64,000 nt of DNA from Bacillota bacterium (GTDB taxonomy: Bacteria; Bacillota; Halanaerobiia; B1SED10-174). A program made the position numbers and the translations under genes. The notes below the pieces were generated by a model. It worked only from the letters and a program-made list of their open reading frames with translations, did not search any database and had not been told where the DNA came from. Positions 34,729 to 55,570 of this stretch are shown in pieces (the first letter of the stretch is position 1; every line of letters starts with the position of its first letter). The stretch lies in contig SKTZ01000071.1 in NCBI GenBank assembly GCA_007122335.1, positions 2,524 to 66,523 of the forward strand. Direction: 5' to 3'.

Positions 34729-35793
34729 TTAAATACTTTTGGAATCAGCTATTTCAATCATTGGTTCTCCAACAATAACTTCACCAACTATTATTGAAGA
34801 CGGTACATCGGCATCCTTTTCCAGTTCCTTTATTACACTTTCCACCTTCTCCGGTTTTACAGCTGCCAGTAACCCACCCGATGTCATTGCATCGCAGAGC
34901 AGAAACTTATGGTACCGGGGGGTATTGTTCCAGTTAACGTTGTTTTCCAAAAATTTAATATTCCGCAATGTTCCCCCGGGAACAACTCCTTTTTGGGCCA
35001 GGACCTCACTGCCGGCGATAAACCAATCCGAACTAATTATTAGCCTGGCCGCAGTTCCACTGGCCTCCATCATCTCAAAAAGGTGCCCCATAAGTCCAAA
35101 GCCAGTTATATCGGTCATGGCATTTACAGTGTCAAAATTCAATACTTTTGCCCCGGCTCTATTTAATGTAGCCATGATTTCTACGGCGTTCTGGATATCT
35201 TTTTCTTCTACCATTGCTCCTTTTACTCCCGTTGATAGAATTCCTGCACCGATCGGTTTAGTCATTACCAGCACATCCCCCGGACGGGCGCCTCCTTTTT
35301 TAATTATCCTCCGGGGGTGAATTAACCCGGTTGCAGAAAGCCCGTATTTTGGTTCATCATCATCCACTGTATGCCCGCCAATTAGAACAGCGCCAGCCTC
35401 CTCAACCTTTTCCTGCCCACCATTTAAAATTTCACCCAGGATTTCCAGGGGAATCTTCTGGGAAGGAAAGCAAACAACATTAAGAGCAGTAATTGGTTCT
35501 GCTCCCATTGCATAAAGGTCACTTAGAGCATTTGCAGCAGCTATTCTGCCAAAATCTCTTCCGTCGTCAACAATCGGTGTAAAAAAATCAATTGTCTGGA
35601 CCAAGGCCTGGTCCTCACTTATCTGGTAAATCCCCGCATCATCAATAATGTCCAGGCCTACCAGAACCTCTTTCCGAGATTGTGGTTGGGGTAATAGGGA
35701 AAGGATAGTTTTTAGGGCCTCCGGCCCCATTTTGCATCCTCAACCGGCTTTTTGCGAAAAACTTGTCAGGCGAACCTTTTTCCGGTTATTCAC
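34729..35793 (-). CDS. selD: selenide, water dikinase SelD; selenoprotein with in-frame UGA (Sec) at 35740-35742
   Basis: The listed ORF (start 35730) lacks the SelD N-terminal active site. Reading upstream in frame gives GTG-NNRKKVRLTSFSQKAG-U(TGA)-GCK-MGPEAL..., which matches the SelD consensus RLTxxSxxAG(C/U)GCKI. GGAGGTG RBS 7 nt upstream. A GGGCC-GGA-GGCCC hairpin starts 12 nt after the UGA, consistent with a bacterial SECIS. Confidence 0.85.
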
Positions 35794-37180
35794 TTTCCTT
35801 CACCTCCTGCGCAATCCTGGCTAGTTCTGTTTTTAGGATGTCCTCTTCCTCTGGTGAAACTGTTCGCAGGTTAAATTCAATTTTCCCCTTAAAAACACTT
35901 GCAATTATTGGAATTTCAGCTTCTCTTAATTTCTGATGGAACTGGCTTAACTCCAAATTTTTCCCCCGAAGATGTAAAACCGGTCCTGGAATTGCTTCCT
36001 GGGGAAGAGTTCCTCCACCGCTAAATGAAGTCCCCTCTCCGATTGACATTTTAAAATTGGAGGGGATTTTTTCTTCAAGGTACGTGTGGATATCTTCAGT
36101 CCTTTCTAGAAGCTCTTTTTCTGTCATTTGAAACATTTTATAAGTTGGGATGAAATCAGGCTGATACAGCAGGTATTGGCGCAAAGTAGCTTCAAGTGCA
36201 GCCAGGGAAAGTTTATCAATTCTTAAAGCCCTCAACAGGTTGTTTCGGGCCATTTTATCAATTAAATCCTTGCGACCCAGGATAATTCCGGCCTGGGCAC
36301 CGCCCAAAAGCTTATCCCCGCTAAAAGAAACTAAATCTAACTTCCCTGAAGTAATTTCGTTTAAAGATGGCTCCCCAGGTAAAGGCCAGAGGGATCCGCT
36401 TCCCAGGTCATAATAGGATATCAGATTATGCTTTTGGGCCAGAGACCCCAGGTCTTCAACTCCCACTTCTTCAGTAAACCCAGTGATACGATAGTTTGAT
36501 GGGTGGACCTTAATTAAAAGTTTTGTGTCCTCTCCTATAGCTTCCTCGTAATCCTCTAGGTGGGTTCTGTTGGTGGTACCCACCTCTCGCAGGCTAACCC
36601 CTCCCTTGGACATAACTTCTGGGATCCTGAAAGAACCACCGATCTCAACAAGTTCACCCCGGGATATTATTGCTTCTCCACCCCGGGCCAGGGTATCAAG
36701 AACGAGTAAAACAGCCGCAGCATTATTATTAACAATAAGTGCTTTTTCCGCTCCAGTCAGGAGTGACAGAAGAAAACCACAAATATCCTGTCTTGAACCT
36801 CTTTTCCCCGTGGAGAGATCATATTCCAGGTTGCAATAACCGGAACCTATCCATCTTAGGTTTTTTATCCCCGCGGGGGGGATGGGTGCCCTGCCCAGGT
36901 TTGTATGCAAAATAATCCCGGTTGCATTTACCACTTTTTGCAACCGGGGAGTTAAAAGTCCCTGGCAACGCAAAATCACTTCCTGGAATATATCCTCCGC
37001 ACCCTTCCAGAGCAGTTTTTCTGAAGAGTCTTGAGATATTTCCGTCCGGAGTTCTTCGACAATAAACCGGACTAATCTTTTGACACCAGGAGAAGATGGT
37101 ACCCCCTGTTTTTTCAGTTCACCCAATACGCTATCAATTCCAGGAAGCTGCCTTAATAAAGAATTATCCATCATGATCAA
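35786..37180 (-). CDS. selA: L-seryl-tRNA(Sec) selenium transferase
   Basis: 464 aa. LHTNLGRA, VNNNAAAVLL, SRGELVEIGGSFRIP and the PLP-lysine FSGDKLLGG are all conserved with E. coli SelA. Its stop overlaps the selD start by 8 nt. Confidence 0.85.
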   Translation of the reverse strand: MIMMDNSLLRQLPGIDSVLGELKKQGVPSSPGVKRLVRFIVEELRTEISQDSSEKLLWKGAEDIFQEVILRCQGLLTPRLQKVVNATGIILHTNLGRAPIPPAGIKNLRWIGSGYCNLEYDLSTGKRGSRQDICGFLLSLLTGAEKALIVNNNAAAVLLVLDTLARGGEAIISRGELVEIGGSFRIPEVMSKGGVSLREVGTTNRTHLEDYEEAIGEDTKLLIKVHPSNYRITGFTEEVGVEDLGSLAQKHNLISYYDLGSGSLWPLPGEPSLNEITSGKLDLVSFSGDKLLGGAQAGIILGRKDLIDKMARNNLLRALRIDKLSLAALEATLRQYLLYQPDFIPTYKMFQMTEKELLERTEDIHTYLEEKIPSNFKMSIGEGTSFSGGGTLPQEAIPGPVLHLRGKNLELSQFHQKLREAEIPIIASVFKGKIEFNLRTVSPEEEDILKTELARIAQEVKESE

Positions 37181-37559
37181 GTCCTTTGAGCAATCGAAAT
37201 TGAACTACCCGGGAGCGAGGACCGTCAAATTCGCAGAAATAAATCCGCTGCCAGGTTCCCAGATCCAGATGATTGTCTTTGAAGGGAATAATAACCGAAG
37301 AACCAACCAGAGTTGATTGTAAATGGGCTGGCCCATTCCCTTCCCGGTGAAGATAGCTTCCCCTGGAAATTCTATCCAGATGTTGAAGGATATCTTCCTG
37401 GACATCAGGGTCTGCCCCTTCATTGATCGTAACACCTGCAGTGGTATGGGAAACAAAAACCAGGAGGGCACCTTCCCCTTTTTCCGGAAGGATCCTCTTT
37501 AACTGTTCGGTAATATCAATCATTTCCATTTTTTTGTTGGATTCAACCTGAAACTGCAC
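37164..37559 (-). CDS. YjbQ/UPF0047 family protein
   Basis: 131 aa with the conserved HTTAG...EG...H core. Overlaps the selA start by 17 nt. Confidence 0.7.
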   Translation of the reverse strand: MQFQVESNKKMEMIDITEQLKRILPEKGEGALLVFVSHTTAGVTINEGADPDVQEDILQHLDRISRGSYLHREGNGPAHLQSTLVGSSVIIPFKDNHLDLGTWQRIYFCEFDGPRSRVVQFRLLKGLDHDG

Positions 37560-37580
37560 TTTAAAACCCCCTCCAGGGAA

Positions 37581-38456
37581 CTAGATCAACCCGGCATCAA
37601 AAGTGGTAATGGAGATTGTTTCTGGGCCGCTGTGGCAGGCTATTGTTGGGGCAAGGCGGGCGCGAATTGTAACAAACTCTTTATCCAGCTTTTCCTCGAT
37701 TAAACTCCTGACCTGTTCAATACTTTTTTCTTGAGGGATGCCTCCCCAAGCCAGCAGAAGAACCGGTTTATCAGCAGTACTCATTCTTTCTAAAGCTAGT
37801 TCAGCCATTTTCTTATAAAGCCCTTTGCTTCCCCTGACCTTATCTAAGGGAGCGATTTCTCCTTTAGAAACTGTCAGTATCGGCTTGATATTTAAAAACC
37901 CTGCAACAAATCCCTTAGCCCTTCCTACTCGACCGTTTTTCACCAGGTAATCCATGGTTTCTACCGAAAAGGCTTCAAAAATAGGTTCCTCTTCTTTAAG
38001 CTGTTCTATAAACTGAATAATTTTATCCTTGTCTTTTTCTTTCTTCATTTTTTCTACAACTGCATAGACAAAAAGCCCTAAAGGAGGACCAACCTGGCCG
38101 GTATCAATTGGTATTATTTCCATATCAGTTACCATTTCTGACGCAAGTCTTGCGGCCTGAACTGTCCCACTCATTTTATGGGAAATATGTAGGGAAAGGA
38201 CTGTGTCGTACCCTTCTTCTTTTAAGCTTTCAAATACTTCAACAAAATCTTTGGCCTGGGGTTGGGTCGTCCGGGGTAGGTTTTCCATTTCTCCAGCCAT
38301 CCGATCATAAAATTCTTCGTGGCTGATGGTTATCTGGTCGACAAACTCCTCTTCCCCGAAATGGATATGCATGCTTACCCTATGGATATTATGTTCGGCG
38401 AAAAAGTCCTGGGGCAAATCACAACTGGTATCAGTAACAATAGCAATTTTACTCAT
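37581..38456 (-). CDS. DegV-family fatty-acid-binding protein
   Basis: IAIVTDS..DLP N-terminus and the DegV fold length. Confidence 0.8.
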   Translation of the reverse strand: MSKIAIVTDTSCDLPQDFFAEHNIHRVSMHIHFGEEEFVDQITISHEEFYDRMAGEMENLPRTTQPQAKDFVEVFESLKEEGYDTVLSLHISHKMSGTVQAARLASEMVTDMEIIPIDTGQVGPPLGLFVYAVVEKMKKEKDKDKIIQFIEQLKEEEPIFEAFSVETMDYLVKNGRVGRAKGFVAGFLNIKPILTVSKGEIAPLDKVRGSKGLYKKMAELALERMSTADKPVLLLAWGGIPQEKSIEQVRSLIEEKLDKEFVTIRARLAPTIACHSGPETISITTFDAGLI

Positions 38457-40010: not shown

Positions 40011-40541
40011 CTAAATTAACCTTAGTTCATTTTTATGGATCTCAAAACCCTTTTCCCCGAAAAGGACAAAGCGGGCTTTTATTACTACGGGATTTTTGGT
40101 TAATTCCTCCAGAACCGTTTTAACAGCTATTTTAGCCGCATCTTTGGTTGGATAACCAAAAGCCCCTGTTGAAATGGCGGGGAAAGCAATTGATTTGATT
40201 TTATTTTCCTGAGCAAGCCTGATTGCGTTTCGATAACACCGCGCTAAAAGTTCATCTTCCGGGTGATCCTGCCCATAGACCGGTCCCAAACAGTGGATAA
40301 TATAAGGATTGGGAAGGTTATAACCCCGGGTCAGAACAGCTTCTCCGGGGTCTATTGGAGCCAGGGGCCTGCATTCTTCAACAAGTTCTGGGCCCGCGGC
40401 CCTGTGGATCGCCCCCGCAACACCTCCTCCGGGCAACAGCTCAGCATTAGCAGCATTTACCACAGCTTCAATATCCTCCTGCCAGGTAATATCTCCCTGA
40501 ACTAATTCCAACCGGCCCCCATTTACCTTCCGTTCAATCAT
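40011..40541 (-). CDS. macro-domain protein (O-acetyl-ADP-ribose deacetylase, YmdB-like)
   Basis: VNAANAELLPGGGVAGAIHRAAG and AFPAISTGAFGYP macro motifs. Start moved to MIERKVNGG. Confidence 0.75.
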   Translation of the reverse strand: MIERKVNGGRLELVQGDITWQEDIEAVVNAANAELLPGGGVAGAIHRAAGPELVEECRPLAPIDPGEAVLTRGYNLPNPYIIHCLGPVYGQDHPEDELLARCYRNAIRLAQENKIKSIAFPAISTGAFGYPTKDAAKIAVKTVLEELTKNPVVIKARFVLFGEKGFEIHKNELRLI

Positions 40542-51443: not shown

Positions 51444-52769
51444 TTGGGTAAACTAAAAATAATATTATTCTTCTTCATTCTAACTATTCTTTTCTCCACT
51501 ACAGTTTTTGGCAATTCACAGGATAATTCCAGTTCTCTGCAAAAGATTGCCGTTTTAAACTTTTCTGTTCTCGATGAAAAGGGGAACCTGATTGATCCCC
51601 TGCATCTCCAGCATACCGAATTATTAAGCCTGTCCCGGACCATGGCCATGGGAATTGCCTCCCGGCTGGTTCAGTACAGGAACTTTGACGTTTATGACCC
51701 AATGTTATTGCGGGAAAAGAAAAATATTGCTCCCTTCCCTCCTGAAATGACTCCTTATGAGCAGGCTCAAATTCTCCTGACTCAGCACGGTTTCGACCAG
51801 GTAATCACAGGATCAATTACTTCAATGTCCAATATTGTTGTTCTTGGCGTCCAGCGGTTTGATTTAGAGGATGATAAACCCCGATTGCTTGGTTCATCCA
51901 TGGCCACGGCTCCTCGAACGAGCGATGCCCCCGCCCAGATCGATTCGCTGCTTTCCATTTTATTTCCGCCCGAAACTCCTGTTATCGAGCGTTCCATCGA
52001 ACAAATTTTTGTCGCCCCCACCATGCTCAGGATCAGTCTTGGTTCTTCACATAAGATAAACCCTCTCGCTTTAGATAGTCTGGGTCGTCCTGTTCCAGAC
52101 CCCACTTTCTTATATATTTCAAGTGACGAAAGCAGGGTTCATGTCGATGATAATGGAGTTATAACGGCCTTAAAACCTGGGACAACTACCATCAGTATTA
52201 GAGGAGTAAGCCGAAGCGCAAGCTCTGGTTCTCCGGCAACAATGACTGTGGTTGTTGTTCCGCCCGTTTTTGGTATCCGGGTAGGCTCATTAATCCCCGA
52301 CGCTTTTGAAGGTGGGAATTTCCCCGTTAAGATGGGTTTCAGGTTTACTCCCTCATTTGACCAGGGAGGTCCCAAAGACCCTCTTGCCGAGGCTTCTAAA
52401 GCAGCCAGCGCTGATCCTACAAACCCCCTGGCTTATGTTGGAACTTTCTTTAGTTCCCTGTTTTCCAGCGGGATAATGACTTTTGATCTGGATTTTGATC
52501 CCAGTGATGAACTTCTATTTGCATTAAGTGGAATTCAGAGAACCTCCAGTGGTTTCATTGGCACTGGTGTTGGTTATGCAACTCCCCTGGGGATGAGTGA
52601 AACAAAGGGTTTTGTTTTCAGGTTTACAGCCGGAACCCAGATATTTTCTTTTTCCCGGGTAACTCTGCCCGTGGAAACCAACATAGATATGATTTTCCCA
52701 ACCAGCGGAACAGGTCGACCGTCCTTTCGCTTCGGGATCAATTTTGGTATCGATCTTTTTCCTCTTTAA
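51444..52769 (+). CDS. secreted protein of unknown function, paralog A (signal peptide, CsgG/LpoB-like N-domain, Big_2 Ig-like domain, beta-rich C-terminus)
   Basis: 441 aa. TTG start with GGAGG RBS and a hydrophobic signal peptide. IAVLNFSVLDEKGN...FDQVITGSI is an alpha/beta domain of CsgG/LpoB/TolB-N type. LRISLGSSHKI...LKPGTTTISIRGVS is Big_2-like. The C-terminal ~190 aa show alternating hydrophobic beta-strand periodicity and end in FRFGINFGIDLFPL. Confidence 0.6.
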   Translation: MGKLKIILFFFILTILFSTTVFGNSQDNSSSLQKIAVLNFSVLDEKGNLIDPLHLQHTELLSLSRTMAMGIASRLVQYRNFDVYDPMLLREKKNIAPFPPEMTPYEQAQILLTQHGFDQVITGSITSMSNIVVLGVQRFDLEDDKPRLLGSSMATAPRTSDAPAQIDSLLSILFPPETPVIERSIEQIFVAPTMLRISLGSSHKINPLALDSLGRPVPDPTFLYISSDESRVHVDDNGVITALKPGTTTISIRGVSRSASSGSPATMTVVVVPPVFGIRVGSLIPDAFEGGNFPVKMGFRFTPSFDQGGPKDPLAEASKAASADPTNPLAYVGTFFSSLFSSGIMTFDLDFDPSDELLFALSGIQRTSSGFIGTGVGYATPLGMSETKGFVFRFTAGTQIFSFSRVTLPVETNIDMIFPTSGTGRPSFRFGINFGIDLFPL

Positions 52770-52941: not shown

Positions 52942-54267
52942 ATGTTTAAATTAAAAACCTTTCTATTGGTTCTTTGCCTGGTTTGTTTAATATCTTTACC
53001 AGCAGAGGCCGGGAATCTAAACATTGCAGAACAAAAAGAGAAAATAGCTGTCCTGAATTTTTCTATTCTTGATGAACAAGGAAACCTATTAGATCCCCTT
53101 TCCCTTGGAAACGCAGAAATAATAACCCTTTCTCGTTCAATGCCCCTGGGAGTTGCTTCCAGGTTAGTCCAATTCGGTAATTTCGAAGTATATGACCATA
53201 TGTATCTTAAAGAAACCATTGAGGTAATTCCATTTCCGGTTGATATGCCTCCCTTTGAGCAGGCTCGAATTTTACTTACAGAATATGGTTTTGACCAGGT
53301 AATTATCGGTTCTATTGCCCCCATGCAAAACCTTGTAATTATTGGTCTGCAGCGATATGATTATTTTCGAGACAAACCTCGTATCCTTGGTTCAGCAATG
53401 ACAACTGCCCCCCGAACAACAGATGTGCCTGCTCAAATCGACCCTCTACTTACAAAGCTATTCCCACCAGAAATTCCAGTTATTGAAAGCCCCATAGACC
53501 AGGTTTATGTTATCCCCAGTCTGCTTCGGATTAACCTCGGTTCATCCCATCAAATTTCGGCCATCGCCCTGGACAGTCTGGGACGCCCCCTAACAGACCC
53601 CACGTTTTTATATATTTCAGGTGACGAATCTAAGGTTTTTGTTGATGAAGGAGGCAGAATCAAGGGCCTGCAGCCCGGGACCACTACTGTCAGCGTGCGG
53701 GGAATCAGCCGGACTGCTCGTTCTGGCCCCCCTGCAACCATGACCGTAGTTGTAGTTCCTCCCGCCTTTGGGATCCGGCTGGGAACCTTACTCACCGACC
53801 GCTCCGGAACTGATAGTTTTCCCATTCGGATGGGATTCAGATTCACTCCATCCTTTGACCAGAGTTTGCAGAAACAAGATCTCCCGGCCACACCCGCCCC
53901 CGCTGCAGCAACTGATCCCACAAACCCCCTGGCCTTCATCGGCTCCTTTTTCAGCTCTCTATTAACCAGTGGATTAATGACCTTCGACCTTGATTTTGAC
54001 CCCAATGATGAGATCCTTTTCGCCCTAAATGGTATCCAGAGATCCTCAACCGGTTACATCGGGACAGGGGTGGGGTACGCCACTCCTCTGGGTGAAAGCG
54101 AAACCCAGGGTTTTGTTTTCCGCTTTACTGCCGGGGTTCAGGTCCGTTCAATGTCAAGGTTGAGTTTCCCCGTGGAAGCAATTGTTGACATGATCATTCC
54201 CACTACGGGAGACATCCGGCCTTCATTCCGCCTGGGAGTCAACCTGGGAATTGATCTTTTCCCCTGA
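52942..54267 (+). CDS. secreted protein of unknown function, paralog B (same architecture as 51444-52769)
   Basis: 441 aa, about 60% identical to paralog A over the full length with the same domain order. Own promoter region and terminator. Confidence 0.6.
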   Translation: MFKLKTFLLVLCLVCLISLPAEAGNLNIAEQKEKIAVLNFSILDEQGNLLDPLSLGNAEIITLSRSMPLGVASRLVQFGNFEVYDHMYLKETIEVIPFPVDMPPFEQARILLTEYGFDQVIIGSIAPMQNLVIIGLQRYDYFRDKPRILGSAMTTAPRTTDVPAQIDPLLTKLFPPEIPVIESPIDQVYVIPSLLRINLGSSHQISAIALDSLGRPLTDPTFLYISGDESKVFVDEGGRIKGLQPGTTTVSVRGISRTARSGPPATMTVVVVPPAFGIRLGTLLTDRSGTDSFPIRMGFRFTPSFDQSLQKQDLPATPAPAAATDPTNPLAFIGSFFSSLLTSGLMTFDLDFDPNDEILFALNGIQRSSTGYIGTGVGYATPLGESETQGFVFRFTAGVQVRSMSRLSFPVEAIVDMIIPTTGDIRPSFRLGVNLGIDLFP

Positions 54268-54721: not shown

Positions 54722-55570
54722 TTATTTGAAATACATGCAGACTCCGACAACTCCTGGACCGGAATGGACTCCAAGGGTTGGTCCAATATCTCCAAAGAAA
54801 GAGGCCTCAATTTCGAAAGCCTGTTCTAAAGCCTGCTGCATTTTCTTTCCCATTTCCTGGGCATCCCCCTGAGCAATGGCCAGACCCCCGGGTTCTCGTC
54901 CCTGAGAATAATCCTGGAATTTTCTCACCACTTCCCTGATTACCTGGGGTTTGTTACGGGCCCGGCCTGCAGGTGCCACTCCCTCTGGGACTAACTGGAG
55001 AATGGGTTTAACTTTTAATATGGAACCCATCAGACTTTTGGCTTTACTTATCCTGCCCCCCAGATACAGGTATTTTAAACTGTCCAGGGTAAAATATGTT
55101 GCACTGTTATCCCGGACACTCTGGAGATGTTCCAAAACCTGGTCAGAAGAATATCCCTTTTTGATAGCATTTACCGCTTCCCTGATCTGAAGCCCAATGC
55201 CCAGGCTAACTGTATAAGAATCAAAAATATGGATTGCACCTTCCACTTTCTCTCGGGCCAACTGTGCAGCATTTATGGTCCCGCTCAAACTTGAAGATAA
55301 GTGGATAGAGATAATTTTACGATAATCTTTTAATAACTCCTGGTAAACACGGATAAAATCCTCGGGAGGTGGTTGTGATGATTTAGGCAGGGTATCGGAA
55401 GAACGCAAACGCTTGTAGAATTCTGCTGGTTTAATATCTTCGCCATCTCGATATTCCCCGTCAGGGAAAATTACCCGCAGGGGAACAATTTTTATATTAT
55501 GTTCTCGGGCAAAATCCTGGGGTAAATCAGCAGTGCTATCTGTTACGAGGGCTATATCCTTCATATTCAA
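54722..55570 (-). CDS. DegV-family fatty-acid-binding protein (second copy)
   Basis: IALVTDSTADLP N-terminus and the DegV fold. Confidence 0.8.
   Translation of the reverse strand: MNMKDIALVTDSTADLPQDFAREHNIKIVPLRVIFPDGEYRDGEDIKPAEFYKRLRSSDTLPKSSQPPPEDFIRVYQELLKDYRKIISIHLSSSLSGTINAAQLAREKVEGAIHIFDSYTVSLGIGLQIREAVNAIKKGYSSDQVLEHLQSVRDNSATYFTLDSLKYLYLGGRISKAKSLMGSILKVKPILQLVPEGVAPAGRARNKPQVIREVVRKFQDYSQGREPGGLAIAQGDAQEMGKKMQQALEQAFEIEASFFGDIGPTLGVHSGPGVVGVCMYFK

Follow-up and report, generated by a model that had tools for sequence, protein, structure and literature searches.

A probable selenocysteine-type selD gene with an in-frame UGA and a SECIS-like hairpin in an uncultured Halobacteroidaceae lineage

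SelD and FdhA are the most widespread selenoprotein families in bacteria, and SelD genes of the selenocysteine (Sec) type are known in Haemophilus influenzae, Clostridia and Deltaproteobacteria (PMC1794560). Among prokaryotes, 19% of SelD genes encode Sec; its position never varies, and the genes concerned are usually mis-annotated (PMC4561486). The joint presence of SelA and SelD is an accepted sign that Sec is used, and Eubacterium acidaminophilum is cited as an example of the selDABC-type gene cluster (PMC12013277).

The selD gene considered here lies in a window (the whole stretch of 64,000 nucleotides that was analysed) from a Bacillota bacterium, and it is an ordinary member of this long-known and common bacterial Sec-type group. 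With Sec-type enzymes such as that of Aquifex aeolicus (PDB 2YYE/2ZOD) it shares the protein family and a single Sec position in the N-terminal Gly-rich loop, and with bacterial Sec-type selD genes in general an in-frame UGA followed by a stem-loop inside the coding sequence, as well as routine truncation by gene callers. It differs from most Clostridia and Deltaproteobacteria, which have G-U-AAK or G-U-ASK, in carrying the loop AG-U-GCK of the E. coli, Bacillus and Alicyclobacillus type, and from other Sec-type selD genes in its order, selA and then selD, with neither selB nor selC nearby. In the selDABC-type clusters of Clostridia (L017, L018, L021, L036, L087) the Sec-type selD likewise adjoins selA, but selB and tRNA-Sec come directly after, whereas here the place is taken by chemotaxis genes. 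The loop of E. coli SelD (3U0O), AGCGCKISP, corresponds to AGUGCKMGP here and Lys20 is common to both; the E. coli enzyme has Cys, hence neither UGA nor SECIS, unlike the present gene.

The features of the gene, with the evidence behind each, are as follows.

34729 to 35793, minus strand: full-length selD (selenide, water dikinase), 354 codons plus stop TAA at 34731-34729, Sec at codon 18 (translation, TIGR00476, NF002098, 3U0O alignment).
35791 to 35793, minus strand: start codon GTG of selD (sequence; sole start codon between the upstream in-frame stop and the UGA).
35801 to 35807, minus strand: GGAGGTG ribosome-binding site within the 3' end of selA, the GGAGG lying 9 nt ahead of the GTG (sequence and conservation in relatives).
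35740 to 35742, minus strand: in-frame UGA, codon 18, read as Sec and homologous to Cys17 of E. coli SelD (alignment and conservation).

The selD frame is closed upstream by the TGA at 35802-35800 on the minus strand, and between this stop and the TGA at 35742-35740 it holds no ATG, GTG or TTG other than the GTG at 35793-35791. From that GTG run 17 sense codons, V/M-NNRKKVRLTSFSQKAG, followed by the TGA and by GCKMGPEAL; the first codons after the TGA are GGA TGC AAA ATG (G-C-K-M), and from there the frame is unbroken to the TAA. The ribosome-binding site, CAGGAGGTG, is kept at the same distance in L001, L007, L008 and L009, while L008 and L099 have ATG in place of the GTG. The mechanically listed ORF covers only 34729 to 35730 (333 aa, ATG start), and the same shortened product is given by public gene calls on 18 contigs, which include three metagenome-assembled genomes at NCBI (PWFX01, SLAQ01, PWVI01), JGI 3300027784, and Logan and ENA assemblies. 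This ORF, devoid of the catalytic loop, is an annotation artefact. An earlier note on this DNA had claimed that the ORF starting at ATG 35730 lacks the catalytic N-terminus, that the true start is a GTG at 35793 preceded by GGAGGTG, and that a TGA at 35740-35742 is followed by GCK-MGPEAL. The start, its GGAGG at 9 nt and the TGA with its downstream codons are exact in the sequence, the latter to the base, and the upstream frame does align to the N-terminus of SelD.

For profile scoring of the 354-residue SelD the UGA codon was replaced by Cys. The extended protein reached 380.5 bits against TIGR00476 (cutoff 125) and 359.4 bits against NF002098 (cutoff 299), with alignments beginning at residues 4-8 and, for TIGR00476, at model position 1, upstream of the TGA; this is the alignment of the translated 35793-34729 region that the earlier note had proposed as a check. 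Compared with E. coli SelD 3U0O (E = 7e-77, query 5-340), the alignment starts from residue 4-5, the TGA falls on the catalytic Cys17 and Lys20 is conserved, the aligned segment around the UGA being KKVRLTSFSQKAG[U]GCKMGPEALKTIL. The extended protein also aligns with the Aquifex SelD 2YYE/2ZOD, with the TGA on the catalytic Cys/Sec, and precomputed Pfam matches (PF00586 and PF02769) place AIRS and AIRS_C (PurM-like) domains on the 333-aa product. The Gly-rich loop AG-U-GCK matches AGCGCK of 3U0O, which bears out the active-site consensus with Sec for Cys put forward in the earlier note, and it exists only if the UGA is read through. Both Cys17 and Lys20 are needed for catalysis in E. coli SelD, and the enzyme without both is catalytically dead; a product starting at Met22 would therefore be inactive.

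The UGA is conserved well beyond this contig. Six fetched independent assemblies (NCBI, JGI, Logan and ENA) are identical through the selD region, TGA included, which excludes a sequencing error. The nearest relatives found by a SelD-based genome scan are three soda-lake genomes labelled 'Halobacteroidaceae bacterium', with 90%, 76% and 76% identity; a fourth (L099), whose SelA is 64% identical, was added later. The TGA at codon 18 is kept in all four of these diverged relatives (the fourth read by eye). Upstream of it, 11 of the 13 codons whose amino acid is invariant between the window and L007, L008 and L009 carry synonymous changes, and the 17-codon stretch is thus translated. At this codon the 80 related SelD loci, drawn from many phyla, show TGA in 58 cases and TGC or TGT in 22. 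Within the window, 12 of 48 conserved genes end in an ordinary TGA stop, which shows that TGA has not been reassigned. We estimate a probability of about 0.93 that selD here is a selenocysteine-type gene, with the UGA read as Sec in conjunction with the hairpin described below and the 333-aa ORF artefactual.

Two other observations were made among the related loci. L011 and L042 are two contigs of one Planctomycetota genome (MB_PLM_2), each with a near-identical Sec-type selD, so that either the gene is duplicated or the bin contains redundant contigs. A 2.5-kb contig assigned to the bin 'Thermoplasmatales archaeon JdFR-43' (L045:1-2533) has a tRNA-Sec (4-98) together with a bacterial-type Sec-SelD with the in-CDS hairpin GGUCC-GGC-GGACC, and is probably a mis-binned bacterial contig.

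Directly downstream of the UGA, still within the coding sequence, the transcript can be folded into two nested elements.

35713 to 35729, minus strand: apical SECIS-like hairpin UGGGGCC-GGA-GGCCCUA, with its core GGGCC/GGCCC at 35727-35715 (RNAfold, synonymous freeze, covariation).
35701 to 35741, minus strand: extended stem-loop pairing GAGGAUG (35741-35735) with UAUCCUU (35707-35701) (RNAfold; weaker, clade-specific, and including two bases of the UGA).

The core consists of GGGCC (35727-35723), GGA (35722-35720) and GGCCC (35719-35715), and begins 12 nt after the UGA, exactly where the earlier note had placed a GGGCC-GGA-GGCCC hairpin; its loop begins 17 nt after the UGA. RNAfold predicts a 7-bp upper stem (35729-35713) together with the lower stem, at -20.9 kcal/mol and z = -2.6. 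The definition of the bacterial SECIS reportedly goes back to E. coli fdhF/fdnG and to the bSECISearch consensus, in work by Liu et al. in 1998 and Zhang and Gladyshev in 2005. Like that element, the present hairpin is a stem-loop directly 3' of the UGA, with the upper stem about 11 nt after it and an apical loop, 16-37 nt from the UGA, with G in its first positions. It departs from the consensus in its very small 3-nt GGA loop, its perfect 5-7 bp GC stem and the lack of an evident bulged U. The GGA loop at 17 nt fits the reported bSECISearch criterion, a G-containing apical loop at about 16-37 nt from the UGA.

The hairpin is shared across Sec-type SelD. Among 56 distinct Sec-type sequences from many phyla, the pattern GGNCC-GGN-GGNCC recurs with its loop 17 nt after the UGA. 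At columns 18-26, position three of the Gly codon pairs with position two of the Ala/Asp codon; this pair reads U-A in 28 sequences but G-C in 12, a compensatory change. Pairing is found in 74.5% of cells, as against 70.5% in shuffled alignments, with none of 500 shuffles reaching the observed value; the covariation comes mainly from this one pair, the remaining stem pairs being invariant or changed on one side only. Folds of Sec-type sequences are stronger than those of 22 Cys-type ones (mean z -1.44 vs -0.38, Mann-Whitney p = 0.001). Within the Halobacteroidaceae clade, comparison over the first 70 codons of selD gave no synonymous change in the four Gly-Pro-Glu-Ala codons of the hairpin, against 31 in the 44 comparable codons outside it (Fisher p = 0.012). 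Together, the pairing, the covariation and the frozen synonymous sites lend the predicted RNA structure evolutionary support, which is modest because a single pair covaries. The hairpin sits in codons for the conserved peptide GPEAL/GPGDL, and the protein therefore accounts for some of its conservation. The lower stem is maintained through wobble-compatible changes in L007-L009, though not in the same register in L099, so only the apical hairpin is treated as a conserved element.

That the hairpin is a by-product of the conserved peptide M-G-P-E-A-L, devoid of RNA function, with Sec inserted by way of another element, is very unlikely. The reading draws on the position of the hairpin within conserved codons and on the fact that some Cys-type SelD also encode GPxDL; the Cys-type GPxDL sequences L010, L015 and L076, however, do not form the hairpin, and neither the frozen G-P-E-A synonymous sites amid variable ones nor the covariation of the Gly third position (G/U) with the Ala/Asp second position (C/A) follows from the peptide.

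A search of Rfam, run over the whole window at gathering thresholds and over 35600-35850 in permissive mode, gave no SECIS family; its only weak match, eiav_FSE at 18 bits against a gathering score of 40, was set aside as a chance hairpin resemblance. Two copies of the 13-nt palindrome GGGCCNNNGGCCC are present in the window against an expectation of 0.13, the one outside the hairpin lying at 40390-40402 (GGGCCCGCGGCCC) within a macro-domain gene region. A terminator-like reading of the hairpin palindrome on the plus strand was rejected, as no plus-strand gene ends there.

Upstream of selD, two overlapping genes are encoded on the same strand.

35786 to 37180, minus strand: selA, L-seryl-tRNA(Sec) selenium transferase (TIGR00474, 512 bits, cutoff 268).
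37164 to 37559, minus strand: yjbQ-family gene, directly upstream and overlapping the selA start (TIGR00149, 121 bits; a selenium link is not implied).

The selA ORF has 464 aa, with gene callers beginning at ATG 37171 (461 aa), and its stop TAA at 35788-35786, within GTGAATAA, overlaps the start of selD by 8 nt; the earlier note had placed selA immediately upstream with this overlap, and both its identity and its position hold. With its GTG overlapping the selA stop and a GGAGG site of its own, selD is probably translationally coupled to selA. The order on the minus strand is degV, yjbQ, selA, selD, cheW, cheA, cheY, cheY, and the block from degV to cheA recurs in L001-L007, L009 and L099. 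The rest of the window holds housekeeping genes (recO, era, ybeY, phoH, dnaK, dnaJ, grpE, hrcA, holA, comEC, transporters).

Several features of this neighbourhood deserve mention in their own right. The adjacency of yjbQ and selA with overlapping ends is found in this Halobacteroidaceae clade only, among 86 loci checked. Two DegV-family (FakB-like) genes are present in the window, in the 37164-38456 region and at 54722-55570, one of which heads the degV-yjbQ-selA-selD block. Tandem paralogues of 441 aa each, 66% identical, occupy 51444-52769 and 52942-54267 on the plus strand, with no NCBIfam match and no Pfam on record. In L101:8398-16841, where SelA is 49% identical, degV, selA, cheW and cheA are kept, and a methyl-accepting chemotaxis protein and a 320-nt gap stand between selA and the chemotaxis genes in place of selD; selD was therefore lost from this position in L101 or never joined it. 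Close SelA protein clusters number five (100, 89, 75, 64 and 56% identity), all source-checked ones coming from soda-lake samples. The next matches, about 47-48% identical, are named Syntrophia, Smithella or Deltaproteobacteria, not Clostridia, a distribution that an ancient horizontal acquisition could explain, as could deep divergence alone.

The earlier note predicted that the genome carries selB and selC elsewhere, and these partners of SelA and SelD in Sec decoding were searched for around the locus and in databases. No selB was found in the 64-kb window or in the 10 kb past either end (about 84 kb in all, the flanks being read from a 123.7-kb ENA contig). ARAGORN found no tRNA-Sec, nor a tRNA of any kind, in the window and its 10-kb flanks, and Rfam found no tRNA-Sec in the window. 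ARAGORN does find tRNA-Sec in 10 other loci, next to selB, which indicates that the tool works. Within 10 kb of Sec-type selD, selA is present in 13 of 58 loci and selB in 11 of 58; given the latter figure, the local absence of selB and selC says little. In a SelB profile search for the same organism, the 120 matches listed were all Clostridium- or Syntrophomonadaceae-like proteins; one candidate, P0061, shared SelD's source pattern and was discarded as coming from a fermentation-metagenome Clostridium, an unrelated organism. The SelA search yielded no cultured or named close relative that could provide a nearer SelB query, and the neighbourhoods of the 64% and 49% SelA relatives contain no selB.

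The earlier note also considered other selenoproteins of the genome likely to be mis-annotated. A scan of the window for further in-frame TGAs that connect two open stretches revealed no additional candidate selenoprotein gene, only upstream stops and overlaps with neighbouring genes. One of these, a TGA ahead of phoH, happens to share the 19/336 codon geometry, and the peptide upstream of it is not protein-like. Among the other loci, an unrelated Clostridium-like organism from fermentation metagenomes (L087:11980-21900; also L089-L094) has tRNA-Sec directly after selB, and about 100 nt past the tRNA-Sec come a phage-type integrase and a series of prophage genes. L088 shares the selD-selA-selB-tRNA-Sec order but lacks the integrase at this place, and the arrangement in L087 looks like a prophage integrated at selC.

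Other readings of the UGA were weighed against selenocysteine insertion. A highly improbable one takes the TGA as the true stop of a 17-codon leader, with SelD starting at ATG 35730 as a truncated protein, inactive, altered in function or the product of a pseudogene. It can point to the 333-aa product in all automatic gene calls and to selB and selC not being found in the roughly 84 kb around the locus or through the SelB database search. It is at odds with the purifying selection on the 17 upstream codons as protein, visible in their synonymous changes, with the alignment of these codons to the SelD N-terminus, and with the recurrence of the same TGA in most related loci. The bases before ATG 35730, GGTTGAGGATGCAAA, moreover contain no Shine-Dalgarno-like sequence directly upstream, and a SelD without Cys17 and Lys20 would be dead judging from the E. 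coli enzyme. The chance that the TGA is a sequencing or assembly error for TGC or TGT in a Cys-type selD is vanishingly small: a single base does separate these codons, but the identical contigs were independently assembled and the TGA also stands in four diverged relatives.

Very little credence is given to a reading in which near-cognate decoding or a suppressor tRNA places one of the standard amino acids (Cys, Trp or Gly) at the UGA and the hairpin acts solely as a stimulator of read-through. The failure to find selB and selC within about 84 kb would fit such a case, but selD is probably coupled to selA, the only known role of which, to our knowledge, is the synthesis of Sec-tRNA(Sec), and in the window TGA serves other genes as a normal stop. 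The hairpin geometry is, in addition, that of Sec-type SelD genes which adjoin selB and tRNA-Sec. UGA-adjacent stem-loops can promote non-Sec read-through in some SPS genes, and the HRE/SRE elements of eukaryotic SPS genes have been discussed (PMC4561486); on the other side, the position is Sec in all known Sec-type SelD (PMC4561486). Extremely unlikely, finally, is a lineage without canonical selB and/or selC in which the conserved UGA and hairpin are decoded otherwise, for example by SelB-independent insertion of Sec or Cys, with selA and selD as an isolated and possibly horizontally acquired pair. The isolation of the pair is supported by the nearest SelA outside the small clade being only about 47-48% identical and of the Syntrophia type.

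If the UGA is read as selenocysteine, as we consider most probable, the course of events can be sketched from the bacterial Sec pathway, which is summarised in PMC9312934 and PMC12013277. One mRNA carries selA and selD, with the GTG of selD overlapping the selA stop, and the ribosome would arrive at the UGA, codon 18 of selD. SelB-GTP-Sec-tRNA(Sec) may then be recruited, by analogy with described systems, by the GC-rich, GGA-looped hairpin that lies 10-12 nt downstream, so that Sec would be inserted instead of termination taking place. The expected product is a 354-residue enzyme whose flexible N-terminal loop AG-U-GCK would contain the catalytic residues Sec and Lys, equivalent to Cys17 and Lys20 of E. 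coli. As in the known pathway, SelD would make selenophosphate, and SelA would use it to turn Ser-tRNA(Sec) into Sec-tRNA(Sec). The synthesis of SelD would thus need its own product, which amounts to a positive feedback loop.

The main value of the finding is the correction of an annotation, and the knowledge of Sec decoding is unchanged by it: the SelD product in public records should have 354 residues with Sec at position 18. For the biology of the organism, selD marks an uncultured haloalkaliphilic Halobacteroidaceae lineage as a selenocysteine user, and its genome is therefore worth searching for other selenoprotein genes.
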